Shown: positions 5,106 through 17,669, counted from the stretch's first letter. The stretch is DNA of 17,669 nucleotides from a virus (IMGVR_UViG_3300045988_015366:1-17669), one strand, 5' to 3'. Made by a program: numbers and translations. The notes: a model not told the origin generated them from the sequence alone.

Positions 5106-5122
5106 AATTTCCTCCTAAACTA

Positions 5123-5155
5123 CGGTGCTCCCCTGATTGTACCAGGGGAGCACCG
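5123..5155 (-). terminator. Intergenic hairpin with a 13-bp stem (CGGTGCTCCCCTG / CAGGGGAGCACCG) and a 7-nt loop. It lies between the appendage gene stop and the lysin SD, and is followed on the transcript by GTAGTTT then AGGAGGAA.
   Basis: Perfect inverted repeat seen directly. The T-run is weak, so it may act as an attenuator or RNA-stability element rather than a full terminator. Confidence 0.45.
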
Positions 5156-5160
5156 CGTCC

Positions 5161-6648
5161 TCAGAATATGGGGTATGTTGCGTTGACAGCGAATGTCTTT
5201 TCGCTGCCTAGCCTTGCGGCCGGAACTAGAGCACCAGTGTTATCGACGATTAGCGGAAATGCTGTAGCATTATCCCACGCCGTAATGTACATGTTTCGAT
5301 ACGGTCTAGCCCACGCAGGAACATTAAACATTGTCAAGAACGCTTCAAGTTGAACGACCGAAAAGATTCCGTGAATGCTTACAGTATCACGCTTTCGAGC
5401 AATGAACATCTGTAGGTTGTTGTCATTCTTGACCCGATCAAAACTTGCACCATTCTTGAGATTGTGCCAACCGAAATCAACCCAACCACTTCCACCTTCA
5501 AGCCAGTTGTCAAACTGTCGCTGCGCAAACTCATAGCCAGCAACACCGAAGTGAACACCAGCATCATCCGGGAAGTAGCGCGAGTTCTTACCGTTGTGGA
5601 ACCACGACCTTGACCCTTCGCAAACTAGCGCACCGTAGGGCTCAAGAACCTCCTTGAGCACGTTAGTTGCGTTGGCACAGTTCATCGCCATATTCCAGTC
5701 ATTGTTGAGCGAATGCTCATTATACAGAACCGGAATAACATAGATCTTTGCGTTAGGAAAAGCCCTTACAGCCTTCTTGATAAACGTAGTGGCAGACTCA
5801 CGAATGTCTTTCTGCCCACGAATATCGTTAAGCATGTCAATAATATAGATCTGTCCCGTAAGACGTGCACGGTCACCAACAGAGTCGGAGATAGCGCGAT
5901 CAATCTGAGTGTTGAAGTTATTGTCGGGAGTACTGGTAAATCCACCACCAGAATACCCATAGTTGTGTGGAATCTCGCCCTTAGCAGTAACCCAGCGCTC
6001 CCAGGTTCCGTTGGGCCAACCACGACTCTCAGCGTTAGATGAACCAATGATAATCGAGTGTGGGTACATCACCCTATGAAGAGGATTATACCGCTTATCA
6101 CTATCAGTCTTGTTGTAGAAATTATTGTCAACAGTCTGCTTGAGAGTCGCAAGGCGACTAGTCACGTCACCACTAAGCGCTATAGCGGAAGACTTGATCT
6201 CAGATATCTGGGAATCAATCTTGTCCTGCCACTTCTTCGACGGAACCTTCAACTTCCCACCAGCAATCGTGGGGGCCGCAACAGTGTCTCCCCCGTCGTC
6301 GCCAGTAAACAATGCGGTGACAACTCTGTTCTCGAAAGACTTTAGCCGCGTTTCCAGTTCTGCGCGTTTAGCGTTGACGGAAGAGTCCCAGTTGTTATGC
6401 AGTTTCTCCATCTCAGTGATGAAGTTTGTAACAACCTCATTGATTCGCTTAACAACCTTGTCCTGCTCTTCGCCGAAACTGTTAGTGAATTCGATAACGT
6501 CAATCACGCTTCGACGAATTCGTTCAAGCACGTCAACATACGTGAGGCCGTCAGAGTACGTGAAAGGGGTGACGTTGTTTAGTGATCGCGAATTAACTCG
6601 CCAAAGAGCACGGTCAATGTTGCCGAGAATCTCATCACCAGTAGCCAT
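5161..6648 (-). CDS. Tail appendage or fibre protein. The N-terminus is a coiled-coil anchor. The central domain has SGNH/GDSL-hydrolase-like blocks (IIIGSSNAE, a Gly block, SLNND, DDAGVHF), suggesting a receptor-modifying esterase. The likely start is the ATG at 6648, preceded by GGAGGA. The track's upstream extension to 6744 lies inside the lower-collar gene.
   Basis: Block motifs by eye. It occupies the phi29 gene-12 position (pre-neck appendage, an enzyme-bearing receptor protein). Confidence 0.5.
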   Translation of the reverse strand: MATGDEILGNIDRALWRVNSRSLNNVTPFTYSDGLTYVDVLERIRRSVIDVIEFTNSFGEEQDKVVKRINEVVTNFITEMEKLHNNWDSSVNAKRAELETRLKSFENRVVTALFTGDDGGDTVAAPTIAGGKLKVPSKKWQDKIDSQISEIKSSAIALSGDVTSRLATLKQTVDNNFYNKTDSDKRYNPLHRVMYPHSIIIGSSNAESRGWPNGTWERWVTAKGEIPHNYGYSGGGFTSTPDNNFNTQIDRAISDSVGDRARLTGQIYIIDMLNDIRGQKDIRESATTFIKKAVRAFPNAKIYVIPVLYNEHSLNNDWNMAMNCANATNVLKEVLEPYGALVCEGSRSWFHNGKNSRYFPDDAGVHFGVAGYEFAQRQFDNWLEGGSGWVDFGWHNLKNGASFDRVKNDNNLQMFIARKRDTVSIHGIFSVVQLEAFLTMFNVPAWARPYRNMYITAWDNATAFPLIVDNTGALVPAARLGSEKTFAVNATYPIF

Positions 6649-7357
6649 AGTATCCTCCAATACCATATCCGTAGATTCCACTCCCAATAAGTCCCCCGGG
6701 AGTTTTAGGGTTGTCGCCATCCCAGATACCCATGAATAGGTCACTAATATCTGCGATAACTAGATCGTCAACATTAATTAGAGTGCTTCGGTAATCAGCA
6801 ATAGCCCGCGCCTTACTTCCCGAATAACCCCACGATTCAGAGTTCTGGTTATTCGTGTAGTTCGACGTCGATGATGACGTACTGTCCGACTCATTCCGGG
6901 ACGTAGAACCCCCGCTAGTGCTGGCGTCGCTAATTGACGTGGCATAGTCGCCATCGCCCGCAAGGCGTGTCTGAGGCGTGTCAGAACCAACCGTACGCCC
7001 CTTGGACTCATTGGTCCCACTACCGCTGCCAGTCTGATGGTTGACTCCAGAGTTTTGAGACTTCCCGTCCTGGCCGGTGCGTGAGTAATGCCGATTGCCC
7101 TCAAGCGGGTCGGTGTTCTGAAGTTCAGCAAGATACATTCGATTATACCGAGGCATAATCAAGTCCATCCGCAACCTCATTCGCCACACGAAAATGTCAA
7201 CAGTTTCGTGCCCGATTTCCTGCAGCCAGTACTCACGTTTAATCCGATCATTAAGTGTTGCCCTGTATGCCTCATCAAAAATCGGATAACTGTCAAGACC
7301 AATATGGTCATCGGTTATTCTGACAACATCACGAAGCATCATTGTTGTTACCGACAT
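6635..7357 (-). CDS. Lower collar protein, phi29 gp11-like, with a central Ser/Thr/Asn/Gly-rich low-complexity segment. The start is probably the ATG at 7357, preceded by GGGGGTGA. The track extends it to 7369.
   Basis: It sits between the connector and appendage genes. The N-terminal region resembles phi29 gp11, and the low-complexity middle is typical. Confidence 0.55.
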   Translation of the reverse strand: MSVTTMMLRDVVRITDDHIGLDSYPIFDEAYRATLNDRIKREYWLQEIGHETVDIFVWRMRLRMDLIMPRYNRMYLAELQNTDPLEGNRHYSRTGQDGKSQNSGVNHQTGSGSGTNESKGRTVGSDTPQTRLAGDGDYATSISDASTSGGSTSRNESDSTSSSTSNYTNNQNSESWGYSGSKARAIADYRSTLINVDDLVIADISDLFMGIWDGDNPKTPGGLIGSGIYGYGIGGYYGYW

Positions 7358-11921: not shown

Positions 11922-12953
11922 TCAGTTATCCTTAAACAGATCGGTAATTGACTTGGGGTTCCAACCGGAATCGGGAACCTTGCTATTCTCATTGTCTGAC
12001 CTGGAAAACAGGCCAGACAATCCTGCCAACGTCTTTCCAGTGCTCTTTGCGGCCTCCGTATCAATGTCTAGTGCATCAACTATAGCATTTCCAGCGTCCT
12101 TCGCAGCAGTACCCGCCGTTCCAGCCGCCGCCTTACCCACGGTACCCAGGTCCCTGCCTACCCTCTCGGCCGTGTCCTTAGTGTTGTTCAAGGTTGCCTT
12201 AACGTCGTCCAGTCGCATCTCCTTGGACTCAGGAACATCATCCCCCGCATAAGGGTTATTGAGTTCCCTGTCGGTTGGCTCAAGGGCTTGACCTAGATTG
12301 GCCTCAAGTTCTGACTGGAGTTTAGATACCTTCTCACCGAAAACTTCAGTGAGTTTCTGCCACGCTTCTTTAGTGTCAGCAAACGGGTCTTTCTTCTCTT
12401 CCTCAGGAACAATGGGATCGCCCGGCTTATTGTTTCCTTTTTCCGAAGAAACCTCAATGCCATCACCATCAGTGTCCCCAGGATCATGAGCCTGCGCGCC
12501 CTGGTGGTCCTTGGGGTCTTCGCCCATTGCGCGCCACTCTTCGTCAGTGCGCTGACCACCATTCTGATTCTGAGCTGCTTCGGCGGCCTTCTTAGGATTA
12601 GCGAGGTCATCGGGATTCTTAGGTGTTACGCCCTTATTGGCTTCGTGCCGCGCCTTCTGTTCGGCCTTGGCCTTCTCCATCCCCGCCGCTTCCTTGGCGG
12701 CCTCCTTGTCCTCCTTCTCCCGTTCCTTGCCAAGTCCTTCCTGGACGCGTGAATTAACGTCACCCGCGAACTTACCAGGGTCCTTAACAATCTCCTTTAC
12801 TGAGGGTTTAGCGGCCTCCTTGGCCTTGGCTTCATTCTTTTTCTGTTGATACAGTTTCTCACCAAGAATTCGCCTATTGCGATCATCCTGGGCTTTATTA
12901 ACTTCATTCTGCAGGCGCACTCTCTGTGCGTAGTCGTTTTCTTTCTTTGCCAC
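11922..12953 (-). CDS. Putative scaffolding protein: highly charged, Lys/Glu/Ala-rich and low-complexity.
   Basis: Composition, and position immediately upstream of the capsid gene (the phi29 gene 7 slot). GTG start with AGGAGGAATT upstream. Confidence 0.5.
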   Translation of the reverse strand: MAKKENDYAQRVRLQNEVNKAQDDRNRRILGEKLYQQKKNEAKAKEAAKPSVKEIVKDPGKFAGDVNSRVQEGLGKEREKEDKEAAKEAAGMEKAKAEQKARHEANKGVTPKNPDDLANPKKAAEAAQNQNGGQRTDEEWRAMGEDPKDHQGAQAHDPGDTDGDGIEVSSEKGNNKPGDPIVPEEEKKDPFADTKEAWQKLTEVFGEKVSKLQSELEANLGQALEPTDRELNNPYAGDDVPESKEMRLDDVKATLNNTKDTAERVGRDLGTVGKAAAGTAGTAAKDAGNAIVDALDIDTEAAKSTGKTLAGLSGLFSRSDNENSKVPDSGWNPKSITDLFKDN

Positions 12954-12968
12954 AATTCCTCCTAAAAA

Positions 12969-13000
12969 GGTAGGCTAGGAACTTACGTTCCTAGCCTACC
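12969..13000 (-). terminator. Canonical intrinsic terminator on the minus strand. The stem is a perfect 14 bp (GGTAGGCTAGGAAC / GTTCCTAGCCTACC) with a 4-nt loop, followed on the transcript by TTTTT and then directly by AGGAGGAATTGTG of the scaffold gene.
   Basis: Seen directly. It separates the replication/early block from the structural block on the same strand. A 14-bp perfect palindrome could also be a protein operator. Confidence 0.65.
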
Positions 13001-13094
13001 ACAATACCCAACTATCTGAAAGTGATCCTGAGGGGTGCTACCCAACCGAGCAAGGCCCAGTTCATTAGGTTGCTTCCTCGCAATCGGTCAGAAC

Positions 13095-13262
13095 TCACTT
13101 AGCAGACTTGGGAGCATTCTTGGCGAGATACTCAATAACCGCCGCCTCAACAATCTCCGAAGAATCCTTGCGAAGAACCCAGTGCATCTCTTCGAGATCA
13201 GCAACAACAGACTTGGAGAGACGGAACTTAACAGTGGTGTGAGTAGAAACAGGACGTGCCAT
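13095..13262 (-). CDS. 55-aa ribbon-helix-helix (CopG/Arc/MetJ-like) DNA-binding protein: MARPVSTHTTVKFRLSKSVVADLEEMHWVLRKDSSEIVEAAVIEYLAKNAPKSAK. It is absent from the ORF track because it is short.
   Basis: Translated by hand. It shows the classic beta-strand (VKFRLS), helix (LEEMHWVLRKD) and second helix (EIVEAAVIEYL) pattern. It starts 15 nt after the polymerase stop. Confidence 0.6.
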   Translation of the reverse strand: MARPVSTHTTVKFRLSKSVVADLEEMHWVLRKDSSEIVEAAVIEYLAKNAPKSAK

Positions 13263-13276
13263 GATGATTACCAACC

Positions 13277-14977
13277 TTAATCAATCTTGAGTGTGAATGT
13301 TGTATCCTTGAGGACTGTTCCCCCAGGAACCCTTACGGGAATCAGTTTACCATTCCAAGAACCGCCGCGCAACATGTCATCTAGCGTAAGTGTTGCTGCC
13401 ACGTTCCGGGGCATCCCCGCAATGTGTACATCTAGTTTACCATCAATTTCCTCTGCGTATTGCTTCGCGCGAATGTAGACCGATTTTGTGAAAGAACTCT
13501 CATGCTTCCAAGCGCCCAGTTCTACAGGGTCAACCCACAGTGAGTCCGGGGGAGTGGTAGGACCAATCAGGTGCAAAGAGTCTGTATCGGCGTACGCGAA
13601 GGTTTCATAGTTATCTTGTGCTGCGCTGATAGTTTTCTTCCGAGCGTATGCAGTAATGAAAACACCCATCGGAGTGTAAACAGGGTCACGCGTCTCCGGT
13701 TCATTCATTACTAGTGAGACTCTGTTATCTTTTAGTTCAGGGTGTTTTCCAGTAATGTCGGGGTTAGTTGCGAACTTTCCATACAAACTGTTTAGATGTA
13801 GTTTTGCGATTTGCCGCAATCCACCTGTACTGTTTTTCTTAATCTCCATAAAATGATCAACATAATTGTCGAAAAATCCGTGTGAGCCGCGAAACTCAAA
13901 CGTTCCATTCCATGAATAAATCTTAAAGTCATAATGTTTTTTCCACAATTCAATATCGATGTTTGTTGCTACAACAGTTGTTGGTTCAGGAACATCTTCA
14001 AGGTACTGTGTTGGATTAAAGGATAGATTCTTTTTAATCTGAATGCAGGGAATGTGGTTGGGTTTAAGTTTTGCTGTAAACGTGATTGAAGCAATATATA
14101 GTGGACGATCTGTTCTAGGGGCGCCCTCCGAGTAGATCGGGTCTCCGTAGGGGAGTAGAGCCGTTCGCATAACAGAGGGATATAGAGAGTTGACGTCATA
14201 CACGCTTCCGACGCCATTCAGTTTCTTTGAGAATCTAGGGTCCGCATAAGTGAATCCGCCACGATATGCTTTTCTGATTTCTGTATCGATCCCGGGTGAG
14301 AGGATTGGGAATCGACGAATGAAAAGTTTCCCCGTCATCTTCTTGTAAGTAGCCAGCGAATCACTACCCGCCGTCAACTTCGTCATCTTCTCTGCAAACT
14401 GAACCTCGAGTGCTTGAGCAACAATCGCAACGTCATTCCGTTGATAGTGTTTCTCTTGCTCTGTAGGAATATATCCTATTGGGCGATGCTTTTCATAGTC
14501 GATCTCTAGTTTCTGGTCATGTAGGTTGAATGCCTTAGCGATTGCTGAAACAGACATAGGCAATTTCTTAAACGAATCTCGAAACTCAACCCTATACCCT
14601 GTCTCAAAAACCACAGTAATTGAATAATACTTCCCCATGCGAGAAATCAAGGAAGTAAATTCCTTCACCCCAGGTGAGTCCTTAGTCCACCTATATCCAT
14701 GCTTAAGCAACCAATCCAGAATGAATGTGCCATCAAAAGCGAGGTTGTGGAAATAAATGTGGGCCGCGCGTTCAGAGATGTGAGACATAAACCCATCAAG
14801 GCTAGTCCCGTCAACATAGTTCTGTAGTTTGCCTACCTGAATAATGCCCCAAGACCATACACGACAATCTTCCTCAACCGTAGTCGTCTCAAAGTCTGCA
14901 CAAAACGAAGGGACCTTCTTGTGGCTACGCCTAACGCCGGCCCTTACGGGCCTTGCGCTTGTTGATTGGCGAACCAC
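13277..14977 (-). CDS. Protein-primed family-B DNA polymerase, phi29 gp2-like.
   Basis: Exo I CADFETTT, Exo II YFHNLAFDGTFIL, Exo III YQRNDVAIV, motif A YDVNSLYPSVM, motif B KLHLNSLYGKF, motif C YADTDS, and a KQY motif. It is collinear with the phi29 DNAP, including the TPR-like insertions. GTG start with GGAGGA 8 nt upstream. It overlaps the terminal protein gene's 3' end by 47 nt in another frame. Confidence 0.95.
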   Translation of the reverse strand: MVRQSTSARPVRAGVRRSHKKVPSFCADFETTTVEEDCRVWSWGIIQVGKLQNYVDGTSLDGFMSHISERAAHIYFHNLAFDGTFILDWLLKHGYRWTKDSPGVKEFTSLISRMGKYYSITVVFETGYRVEFRDSFKKLPMSVSAIAKAFNLHDQKLEIDYEKHRPIGYIPTEQEKHYQRNDVAIVAQALEVQFAEKMTKLTAGSDSLATYKKMTGKLFIRRFPILSPGIDTEIRKAYRGGFTYADPRFSKKLNGVGSVYDVNSLYPSVMRTALLPYGDPIYSEGAPRTDRPLYIASITFTAKLKPNHIPCIQIKKNLSFNPTQYLEDVPEPTTVVATNIDIELWKKHYDFKIYSWNGTFEFRGSHGFFDNYVDHFMEIKKNSTGGLRQIAKLHLNSLYGKFATNPDITGKHPELKDNRVSLVMNEPETRDPVYTPMGVFITAYARKKTISAAQDNYETFAYADTDSLHLIGPTTPPDSLWVDPVELGAWKHESSFTKSVYIRAKQYAEEIDGKLDVHIAGMPRNVAATLTLDDMLRGGSWNGKLIPVRVPGGTVLKDTTFTLKID

Positions 14978-16007
14978 TGAAATCGTCCTCCGGTTTAATC
15001 TGGATTGAATGAATCTCCTTCAAGAGATTCTTAATGCCGCTGTTTGAATCTTCGACGTCTTCGTAATATAAATCTTCTCCCGCTCTACGTTTCTCGAAAT
15101 ACCCTTCTTTTGCTGCCTCATACTGCAAAGATAGTTGGTTGGCAAAATCGGCATTAACTGTCCACATTAGCCATAGCACGTCATCGGGAATATCTGTAAG
15201 AATGTCATACAGGTCAGGGTCACCAATAACATCAAGCATTGCCGCGATTTGTTTCTTAGCGTTAGTCAATTTCTGTTTCTTACCCTTAGCAGTTATGTCA
15301 CGCAAAACCTGATTGGTTTTCTCGCGCATTGCCTCAGCCGACTCAAAATTAACAGATCGCTTATCAGGATTCATTCGCTCAAGGGCGTAATGTGAACCAC
15401 CATCGAGATAGGTTTTCTTTGGACGAAAATCTCTAATCCAATCACCCACGCTAGCGTCACCTAATTGGGGGAGGTGTGTTCCCGAAACAGATTTCTCGTA
15501 AGCATCTATGTCTGCATTATAGCGTCGCACAGCATCACGATAACGACGAACGTCCTTAGCAGAGATGGGATTACCATGACGGTCACTATAATACCAAACA
15601 CTACTAGAATTATTAAACTCACTAAGACGCTCAAGTTCTCTCGAAGCATTCTTTAACGTAACCTTTCCTACCGCAGACTTACCCAACGGATCAAACTTAG
15701 TCCCACGAATATCCGCCCCGTCATCACTGGTGGCCATCCGATACATTTTTCTGATAGCCCTATCGCGCTCAACCTGAAGCATCTCACGCGCCTTATCCAA
15801 CTCAGACCTATGCTGTTCACGTTGACTCGCCTTAGCCGACTTGATCCGAGAACCACCCTGTTCCTCAGAAAGCGTATCCGGCAAAGGATTAAAAGAAAGA
15901 GAACCAACAAACGACCTAATATCATTCGCAGTATTCCGAACATTCTTCGCACCACGCTTAAACGCCCTATAATGCCTACCCCAATGAGACCTAACCAAAC
16001 CAATCAC
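14931..16007 (-). CDS. Putative terminal protein, the replication primer.
   Basis: It sits immediately upstream of the polymerase and overlaps it, as phi29 gene 3 does with gene 2. It is basic with a helical N-terminal half. A TP is required given the ITRs and a protein-primed polymerase. The start is uncertain: GTG at 16007 or TTG at 15998. Confidence 0.5.
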   Translation of the reverse strand: MIGLVRSHWGRHYRAFKRGAKNVRNTANDIRSFVGSLSFNPLPDTLSEEQGGSRIKSAKASQREQHRSELDKAREMLQVERDRAIRKMYRMATSDDGADIRGTKFDPLGKSAVGKVTLKNASRELERLSEFNNSSSVWYYSDRHGNPISAKDVRRYRDAVRRYNADIDAYEKSVSGTHLPQLGDASVGDWIRDFRPKKTYLDGGSHYALERMNPDKRSVNFESAEAMREKTNQVLRDITAKGKKQKLTNAKKQIAAMLDVIGDPDLYDILTDIPDDVLWLMWTVNADFANQLSLQYEAAKEGYFEKRRAGEDLYYEDVEDSNSGIKNLLKEIHSIQIKPEDDFSGSPINKRKARKGRR

Positions 16008-16032
16008 CCCCTGCCCCCTAAGGGGCAGGGGG
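16007..16032 (-). terminator. All-GC hairpin with an 11-bp stem (CCCCCTGCCCC / GGGGCAGGGGG) and a 4-nt loop, followed on the transcript by UGAUUGGUUUGGUU. It lies between the SSB and terminal protein genes and abuts or overlaps the terminal protein start codon.
   Basis: Seen directly. It could terminate or attenuate after the abundant SSB, or sequester the terminal protein ribosome-binding site. Confidence 0.5.
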
Positions 16033-16055
16033 CAACTAGTATCCTACAGGACCAC

Positions 16056-17545: not shown

Positions 17546-17669
17546 GCGGGCTAACCCCGCCCCGTTCATGTATTAATAATGCACCAGAGTTCTTCGTGAG
17601 TCAACCCAGAAACGTGTGAACTGAACCACACAAACAAATGTCCTGACATAGGCAGACCCATTGTCCTAA
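17546..17669. repeat. Right inverted terminal repeat, partner of 1-124.
   Basis: The reverse complement of 17546-17669 equals 1-124 except for three T/C or A/G differences. Confidence 0.9.
17576..17604 (-). promoter_or_regulatory. Mirror copy of the ITR promoter candidate. On the minus strand, TTGACT is 17604-17599 and CATTAT is 17581-17576. It would drive the right terminal gene starting at 17526.
   Basis: The ITR is identical across both hexamers. Confidence 0.3.

Follow-up and report, generated by a model that had tools for sequence, protein, structure and literature searches.

The 17,669-nt window analyzed here (IMGVR_UViG_3300045988_015366:1-17669; by window we mean this whole stretch of DNA) is the complete linear genome of a phi29-like phage, a relative of Actinomyces phage Av-1 (genus Dybvigvirus), and this work deals with the short noncoding junction at which its replication genes give way to its morphogenesis genes. 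The orientation of the window is reversed with respect to the Av-1 record, and the early and late genes all lie on the minus strand, being co-directional, as a preliminary description of this DNA had claimed. Read along that strand, small open reading frames (ORFs) are followed by the genes for a phi29-type single-stranded DNA-binding protein (SSB), the terminal protein, a 566-aa type-B polymerase (positions 13277-14977), a 55-aa ribbon-helix-helix (RHH) protein and a 343-aa charged protein, and then by those for a phi29-type major capsid protein, tail knob, connector, lower collar, ORF13, antireceptor, packaging ATPase, holins and lysin. To judge from its phi29-type polymerase, terminal protein and SSB, the genome probably replicates by protein-primed strand displacement. 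The genome ends in inverted terminal repeats of about 100 nt (1-105 and 17565-17669; 98 to 100% identical), each containing an inward-facing, consensus-like TTGACT-17-CATTAT promoter (66-94 on the plus strand and 17604-17576 on the minus strand).

The final gene of the replication block encodes the 55-aa protein (13095-13262, minus strand; ATG at 13262, stop codon at 13097-13095), and its ATG lies 14 nt past the polymerase stop codon. It is the equivalent of Av-1 ORF7, a "hypothetical protein" in the Av-1 record, with which it shares 87% identity. The proposal that a 55-aa RHH protein is encoded right after the polymerase was borne out. The match to Pfam RHH_1 (PF01402) was marginal (20.9 bits against a cut-off of 20.5, E-value 3.5e-4), and the AlphaFold2 (AF2) model of the monomer, with a mean pLDDT of 81, has an extended segment (residues 1-16) followed by two helices (17-30 and 34-49). 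In a Foldseek search against the PDB, the top 30 or so matches were RHH proteins, led by CopA antitoxin, CopG, ParD and Arc (probability 0.92 to 0.99, TM 0.6 to 0.78). When profiles were compared with PDB sequences, the E-values of the matches (MazE and CopG-family proteins) were no better than 0.6 to 0.7. An RHH fold is thus supported by the model. In size and strand-helix-helix arrangement the protein resembles plasmid CopG, Arc and Mnt of P22 and the ParD-type antitoxins, which are 45 to 55 aa long, with a sequence identity of at most 27%, the fold in our case coming from a predicted structure. No toxin partner is encoded near the gene, and we found no further Pfam DNA-binding domains among the small ORFs. 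The length of 55 aa is kept in 97 of 97 homologue clusters, and most of those whose longest contig is near complete are found on contigs of ca. 17 kb.

To compare the junction, loci encoding the RHH protein were collected (53 from IMG/VR, 80 from metagenomes, and 6 further contigs), of which 130 had a complete sequence, with 98 distinct versions of the gap that fell into six clades, A to F. In all 98 versions, the gap after the RHH gene measures 145 to 153 nt, with the RHH stop codon and the next start codon included in the count. In Av-1, the corresponding ORF7-ORF8 gap has the same gene order around it and an identical hairpin (described below), which is unannotated in the Av-1 record. Identity to Av-1 is 76.5% for the whole genome, 84% across the 3-kb stretch 12000-15000 and 81 to 89% for the flanking genes, but 95% for the gap, which places it in the top 0.2% of 141-nt windows, and over the 58 nt that run from TTGGGT to the Shine-Dalgarno sequence the two phages do not differ at all. 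Considering this near-constant length across clades and an identity far above that of the genome, the gap between the RHH and scaffold-like genes is, on comparison of sequences, the best-conserved noncoding element of the genome.

Five nucleotides past the RHH stop codon begins the first structured element of the gap, a long RNA hairpin with an imperfect stem (13041-13092, minus strand), which we call P1. Its parts are an outer helix, an internal loop on the 5' side (AAGCAA), a short inner helix (CCUA/UGGG), and AUGAAC as the apex, which has the general form xTGAxx. RNAalifold predicted P1 in clades A plus B and in clade C, and single-sequence folds predicted it in all six clades. Since its register shifts among clades, P1 was compared by helix detection in each sequence, and the 38 distinct stem sequences gave a median uninterrupted helix of 9 bp versus 6.2 in shuffles, with the G-U pairs on the sense strand. 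A P1-type hairpin, with the 5'-side internal loop and an xTGAAx apex, also follows the RHH-like gene in Arthrobacter phage Anjali and in the Curtobacterium phages discussed below; besides the window, P1-type hairpins are listed at 4290-4330 of L222 and 4150-4180 of L221. P1 is a candidate for an uncharacterized RNA motif, lacking a match in Rfam, and it could be the 3' end of the early transcripts, a processing site or the target of a regulator. The Av-1 record places a putative promoter (TTGAC-18-TAAT) just after ORF7, inside P1. We rejected it as a conserved promoter, since the -35 reads CTGAC, CCGAC or TCGAC in the window and clade B and is absent in clade D, and both hexamers lie inside the covarying helix; neither is it conserved in most other relatives.

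The second element is a perfect 14-bp stem with a GUAA loop (12969-13000, minus strand; arms 13000-12987 and 12982-12969, 14 of 14 positions complementary), eight of whose pairs are G-C and whose predicted free energy is -27.8 kcal/mol. It is the longest perfect stem of the genome, while 100 dinucleotide shuffles never gave more than 11 bp, and the top match of a genome scan for terminator-like sites, although the total of such matches did not exceed that of shuffled sequences. The preliminary description was correct in reporting this inverted repeat and, directly after it, a U5 tract (12964-12968) abutting the Shine-Dalgarno sequence of the next gene. The latter reads AGGAGG (12958-12963), and 4 nt separate it from the GTG start codon (12951-12953), all on the minus strand. 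The product of this next gene, the first of the morphogenesis block (11922-12953, minus strand), is a 343-aa charged protein rich in K, E and A, equivalent to Av-1 ORF8. It has no match in Pfam or PHROGs, and is presumed to be the scaffold because of where its gene lies and because its positional equivalent in Curtobacterium phage Ayka is annotated as scaffolding protein.

The hairpin was found in every clade, and together with the RHH gene in 130 of 130 complete loci. Among 40 distinct sequences, 96.7% of cells were paired and compensatory changes affected 6 of the 14 pairs. The stem core TAGGC/GCCTA is essentially invariant, whereas the inner stem varies (for example, GGAAC is replaced by GAAGC, GGGGC, GGAAGC or CGCACA) and the distance between the invariant TAGG and CCTA boxes ranges from 22 to 25 bp among clades. 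A GGAGG and a start codon occupy the equivalent position in all relatives, 3 to 13 nt from the hairpin. The U-tract is not conserved: an exact U5 is present in 13 of 98 unique sequences, and the other clades have one to four U among the first six bases. Clade A has U5; in clade B the stem is extended by A-U and U-G pairs and followed by UUU or GCUUU (GUUUU elsewhere); clade C has UCGCUUAU, clade D UUCUUGUUU or UUACUAUU, and clade E ACUCGUU, GCCAUU or similar. Therefore, the designation of terminator proposed earlier fits this genome, in which a real and covarying hairpin with a terminator-like end stands at the boundary between replication and morphogenesis genes, but not the conserved element as a whole. 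A host origin for the repeat was also considered and discarded: an exact scan of 185,579 genomes gave the hairpin once, on L228 (CAUPVL010000003.1, 16,832 nt), which is binned with Candidatus Saccharibacteria but is almost certainly a phage genome, probably an Av-1-like one that was mis-binned, perhaps because Saccharibacteria have Actinomyces as their hosts.

Two copies of a TTGGGTA box lie on the minus strand of the gap. The first (13039-13045), within TTGGGTAGC (13045-13037), is also the 3' end of P1 and is found in clades A and B, with a related GGGTAGC in clades E and F. The second (13005-13011) lies in the stretch that is identical to Av-1, and its core TTGGGT is present in all six clades, starting 13 to 14 nt 5' of TAGGC; it is invariant in two alignments, and only two single-base variants were seen among 62 unique 3' halves. 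Downstream of it is TGGTAGGCT (12993-13001, minus strand), a match to the extended -10 consensus TGnTAnnnT located 39 nt before the GTG, which spans the base preceding the stem plus positions 1 to 8 of the hairpin 5' arm, with its hexamer at 12998-12993. A match to TGnTAnnnT is present in 97 of 98 unique gaps (TGGTAGGCT in 84, TGATAGGCT in 7, and TGATAGAAT in 6), and the variants differ at the unspecified positions only. Inspection of the window and its relatives revealed no TTGACA-like hexamer 16 to 18 nt upstream of TGGTAGGCT that could act as its -35. The transcription start predicted from the motif, at about 12986, is the first base of the loop. The candidate early promoters of the terminal repeats are of a different type from this late-gap motif. 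The co-directional block has 16 sense-strand matches to TGnTAnnnT, three of them in its 323 nt of intergenic gaps versus 0.29 expected (Poisson P of 0.003); they are the TGGTAGGCT site, TGCTACAAT at 10548-10540 and TGGTACAAT at 5144-5136.

Several other contents of the gap were considered and discarded. A search with the Rfam 15 covariance models gave no match with an E-value below 1 within 12954-13094, and no packaging RNA (pRNA) match anywhere in the window. A packaging RNA hidden in the gap was rejected, since the P1 apex is not complementary to the hairpin loop, a terminal helix is lacking, and Rfam gave no match. RNAalifold proposed that the P1 loop ACCUA forms a pseudoknot with UUGGGU, which we rejected because clade F lacks ACC but keeps TTGGGT. 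The 17-codon ORF MNWALLGWVAPLRITFR (13014-13067, minus strand) has the same length in clades A and B, but we do not consider it a leader peptide, since clade E has a truncated version and clades C and D have none, and its substitutions track RNA pairing; it is probably incidental to the RNA structure. A sigma-B/F-like -10 element (GGGTAT) at the TTGGGTAT box was dismissed, as there is no matching -35 at the proper spacing. We found no description of this junction in the literature searched, nor anything on Av-1 ORF7, the ORF7-ORF8 gap or transcription in these phages; the 2006 Av-1 paper was outside the scope of that search.

The hairpin is not the only one of its kind in the genome. Stable hairpins occur in four same-strand gaps, namely, after the SSB gene, the RHH gene, the capsid gene and ORF13, that is, also inside the early and late blocks, and hence such a hairpin is not a device unique to the early/late boundary. 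The gap between ORF13 and the antireceptor gene contains a 16-bp hairpin (5122-5156, minus strand) with TGGTACAAT (5136-5144) at its apex, and in the Av-1 record the counterpart of this motif, TGGTATAAT, is labeled a -10 signal, a type of feature that in that record is itself a prediction. Among 49 distinct relatives of this gap there were 38 different stems, but an apex of the form TAnnnT (TACAAT, TAGAAT, TATAAT or TATACT) in 49 of 49. Its wobble pairs show a strong sense-strand bias (91 G-U versus 8 A-C). In the capsid-tail gap, TGCTACAAT (10548-10540, minus strand) comes right after the capsid stop codon and is followed by a 16-bp hairpin (10538-10502) that precedes the tail-knob gene. The motif stands before the hairpin in clade A, immediately 3' of it in clade B (TGCTATGCT), and overlaps the stop codon in clade D. 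Clade C (loci L047-L054) has CAGATTGGGTAGCCACCCC, with the TTGGGTAGC box, just 5' of its capsid-tail hairpin, so that this box, found also in the gap of the window, recurs beside hairpins of different gaps. The gap between the SSB and terminal protein genes holds a very stable G/C hairpin (16005-16033, minus strand), the 3' arm of which, GGGGGCAGGGGG, abuts the GTG start and would therefore bury a purine-rich possible ribosome-binding site.

Considering all of the above, the reading that we favor, with somewhat less than an even chance (about 0.45), is that the gap is a compact terminator/promoter junction between the replication and morphogenesis genes, with the RHH protein as its likely regulator. 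Transcripts from the early promoters would run through the polymerase and RHH genes and fold first P1, then the 14-bp hairpin. Given the U5 after the hairpin in this clade, they would most likely be terminated or strongly attenuated at about 12964-12969. The DNA of the hairpin 5' arm would in turn carry an extended -10 promoter, TGGTAGGCT, with no recognizable -35, from which the host RNA polymerase would initiate at about 12986, in the loop, and continue into the scaffold and capsid genes. Starting in the loop, the late mRNAs would lack the 5' arm and be unable to form the terminator. It had been argued that late expression needs either read-through of the terminator or a promoter upstream of the hairpin; the comparison points instead to this third option, a promoter inside the hairpin, which would make antitermination unnecessary.

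The RHH protein is the obvious candidate for the regulator of such a junction, since it is encoded right beside it, the small ORFs gave no other match to a DNA-binding domain of Pfam, and the invariance of TTGGGT and TAGGC is not explained by pairing. From this invariance, the two boxes are candidate RHH subsites, and the protein would most likely set the activity of the -35-less promoter, probably through them. Its sign could go either way, i.e., activation, as by p4 at the -35-less A3 promoter, or repression, as by Arc and CopG at sites overlapping the -10. The more specific idea of the preliminary description, that the palindrome itself is the RHH operator, found no positive support: the palindrome is unique in the genome, the spacing of its boxes varies among clades, no further copies of it or of a TAGRNTAGR box exist near the early promoters, and there is no clean covariation with the RHH beta-strand.

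A number of observations weigh against the terminator/promoter reading. The -10 motif lies inside the stem, in a region that is conserved for pairing anyway, and hence the conservation of TGGTAGGCT is partly confounded with, and not independent of, that of the hairpin. The best match in clade C, TGATAGAAT, is displaced by 5 nt relative to TTGGGT. The residues T10, K12 and R14 of the beta-strand, putatively those that read the DNA, differ in clade C only, and this clade keeps both TTGGGT and TAGGC; moreover, with clade C alone differing in both protein and DNA boxes, their covariation amounts to a single event. The geometry of hairpin and -10 is unlike among the three gaps, and in the capsid-tail gap of clade A the promoter-like motif precedes the hairpin, which, if it were an efficient terminator, would stop the transcripts begun at that motif. 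The equivalent gap of phage Anjali has no TGnTAnnnT. An mRNA starting at 12986 would have a freed 3' arm that is predicted to pair with the Shine-Dalgarno sequence (-10.6 kcal/mol), an odd arrangement for genes needed in bulk. Finally, a constitutive extended -10 promoter alone gives no temporal switch.

The most credible of the alternatives, although in our view an unlikely one, is a single long transcription unit from the terminal-repeat promoter, in which the hairpins would be attenuators, RNase-processing sites or stability elements, the -10-like motifs incidental, and the RHH protein active elsewhere, at early promoters or host genes. The four stable hairpins in same-strand gaps, mostly without good U-tracts, fit such an arrangement, and so do the sense-strand G-U pairs, particularly those of the ORF13 gap, as expected for a function at the RNA level. 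Long imperfect duplexes are the type of substrate cut by RNase III, and P1 is one of them. However, this explanation does not account for the fixed T, G, T, A, T of TGnTAnnnT while 38 stems diverge completely, for the persistence of the capsid-tail motif despite its shifts relative to the hairpin, or for the enrichment of the motif in gaps together with the invariance of TTGGGT.

We consider improbable a switch along the lines of the preliminary description, with a true terminator, no internal promoter, late genes expressed by read-through alone, and an RHH protein that binds the palindrome, either as a DNA operator or in the nascent RNA, to switch termination off late in infection, or else acts in the manner of phi29 p4. 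The hairpin with its U5 is indeed the best terminator-like site of the genome, there is no room for a promoter between it and the Shine-Dalgarno sequence, the RHH gene is adjacent and always cooccurs with it, and its sequence is conserved far beyond the needs of pairing. Against this stand the lack of conservation of the U-tract among clades, the 22- to 25-bp range of the TAGG/CCTA spacing in a palindrome that has no second copy, the similar hairpins away from the boundary, and the position of the upstream promoter annotated in Av-1, which is not conserved and lies inside a covarying helix. In addition, RHH proteins are not known to act as antiterminators.

Much less probable is a translational device, in which the 3' arm GUUCCUAG, complementary to the ribosome-binding site UAGGAGGAA, would compete with the 5' arm, so that the translation of the scaffold would be set by the form of the RNA. 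In the predicted folds, the 3' arm pairs with the Shine-Dalgarno sequence when the 5' arm is lacking, as mentioned above, while the full-length form leaves that sequence free, and the hairpin is always close to the ribosome-binding site; but the complementarity is short, follows from the purine-rich 5' arm and is weak or absent in clade C, and nothing known other than the internal start proposed here would deprive the RNA of its 5' arm. Least probable of all is a role of the palindromes as DNA structures, in which hairpins or cruciforms forming on displaced single strands, or on DNA under torsional stress, would make the -10 hexamer accessible or mask it and couple late transcription to strand-displacement replication: the hexamer sits at the exact apex of the palindrome in every relative in the ORF13-antireceptor gap, and both the presumed mode of replication and the sense-strand wobble bias would fit a displaced strand, but there is no precedent in this group of phages, the geometry differs among the three gaps, folding of the RNA explains the same bias, and a displaced nontemplate strand cannot be transcribed.

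The terminator/promoter reading could be extended to a rule for Av-1-like and related actinobacterial phi29-like phages, although we regard this as a long shot. Late promoters would lie inside stable hairpins, ca. 40 bp would end one transcript and start the next, and the RHH protein would gate the first of these sites via TTGGGT and TAGGC. The -10 hexamer may then be found in the 5' arm of the hairpin preceding the scaffold gene and at the exact apex of the one preceding the antireceptor gene, and, in a radical version, the hairpin form of the DNA may control the use of the promoter, tying late transcription to strand-displacement replication.

More distant phages share part of this organization. 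Arthrobacter phage Anjali, Curtobacterium phages Penne, Ayka and Reje, and Glutamicibacter phage Voltaire have polymerases with about 50% identity. The first four share the order SSB, terminal protein, polymerase, small RHH-like gene, gap of 96 to 302 nt, scaffold and capsid, and Voltaire also keeps the order polymerase, small gene, long gap, scaffold and capsid. The small proteins of Anjali and the Curtobacterium phages are longer (76 to 92 aa) and weakly similar to the 55-aa RHH protein; Anjali gp8, annotated as RHH, has distant similarity to the 55-aa family (hhalign E-value of 2e-5). In the equivalent gap of the Curtobacterium phages, TGCTATAGT, TGCTAGGAT or TGCTAGAGT (TGCTAnnnT) comes directly after the P1-like hairpin, and a large hairpin is located in the leader, before the ribosome-binding site. 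Penne has more pairs of hairpin and motif elsewhere in its genome.

As far as can be judged from these comparisons, the closest relative of the junction is its unannotated equivalent in Av-1. It also resembles two known late switches, being a member of neither. In the Q/PR'/tR' module of lambda, the late operon is preceded by a strong terminator and a short structured leader, with the gene for the regulator immediately before them. The order is the same here, with a candidate regulator and a terminator-like hairpin, but the window has no Q-family protein and no conserved promoter upstream of the hairpin, and the promoter-like motif is inside it. With the p4 switch of phi29, the junction shares a small early protein encoded beside the early/late boundary of a protein-primed podovirus, and a candidate late promoter without a -35, as described for A3 (PMC11476376). 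Nevertheless, p4 is not an RHH protein, the early and late promoters of phi29 (A2b/A2c and A3) are divergent, and there is no terminator at its junction. A p4-type switch would entail a p4 homologue and divergent overlapping promoters, while the candidate regulator in our phage is an RHH protein and the genes are co-directional. The view of the junction as a functional analogue of the p4 switch is functional speculation; overall, what the preliminary description had observed was confirmed, and what it had made of it was supported in part.

Outside the junction, the left arm of the genome (1-1510), with small plus-strand ORFs, is just 46% identical to Av-1, compared to 76.5% overall, and contains perfect hairpins at 395-426 (13 bp) and 662-691. 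In the equivalent arm, the Av-1 record places a tentative "packaging RNA," but Rfam found no pRNA in the window. ORF13 (527 aa; 5161-6744, minus strand) has a near-threshold match to a GDSL-like lipase/acylhydrolase domain (residues 233-405; 31.0 versus 32.9 bits), which suggests a virion-associated esterase.

For small protein-primed phages with all their genes on one strand, the way in which early and late expression are separated is not known outside Bacillus phi29. The junction described here is common to more than 100 phage genomes from oral metagenomes, and its parts are recognizable in soil phages of Arthrobacter and Curtobacterium. It comes down to a small and concrete set of elements: a 55-aa protein, two boxes, one hairpin and one -10 motif. 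Even if the design of an overlapping terminator and promoter were not true, the hairpins and P1 would still be conserved and uncharacterized RNA elements; if it is true, it would be a compact way of insulating transcription units, reusable in Actinobacteria.

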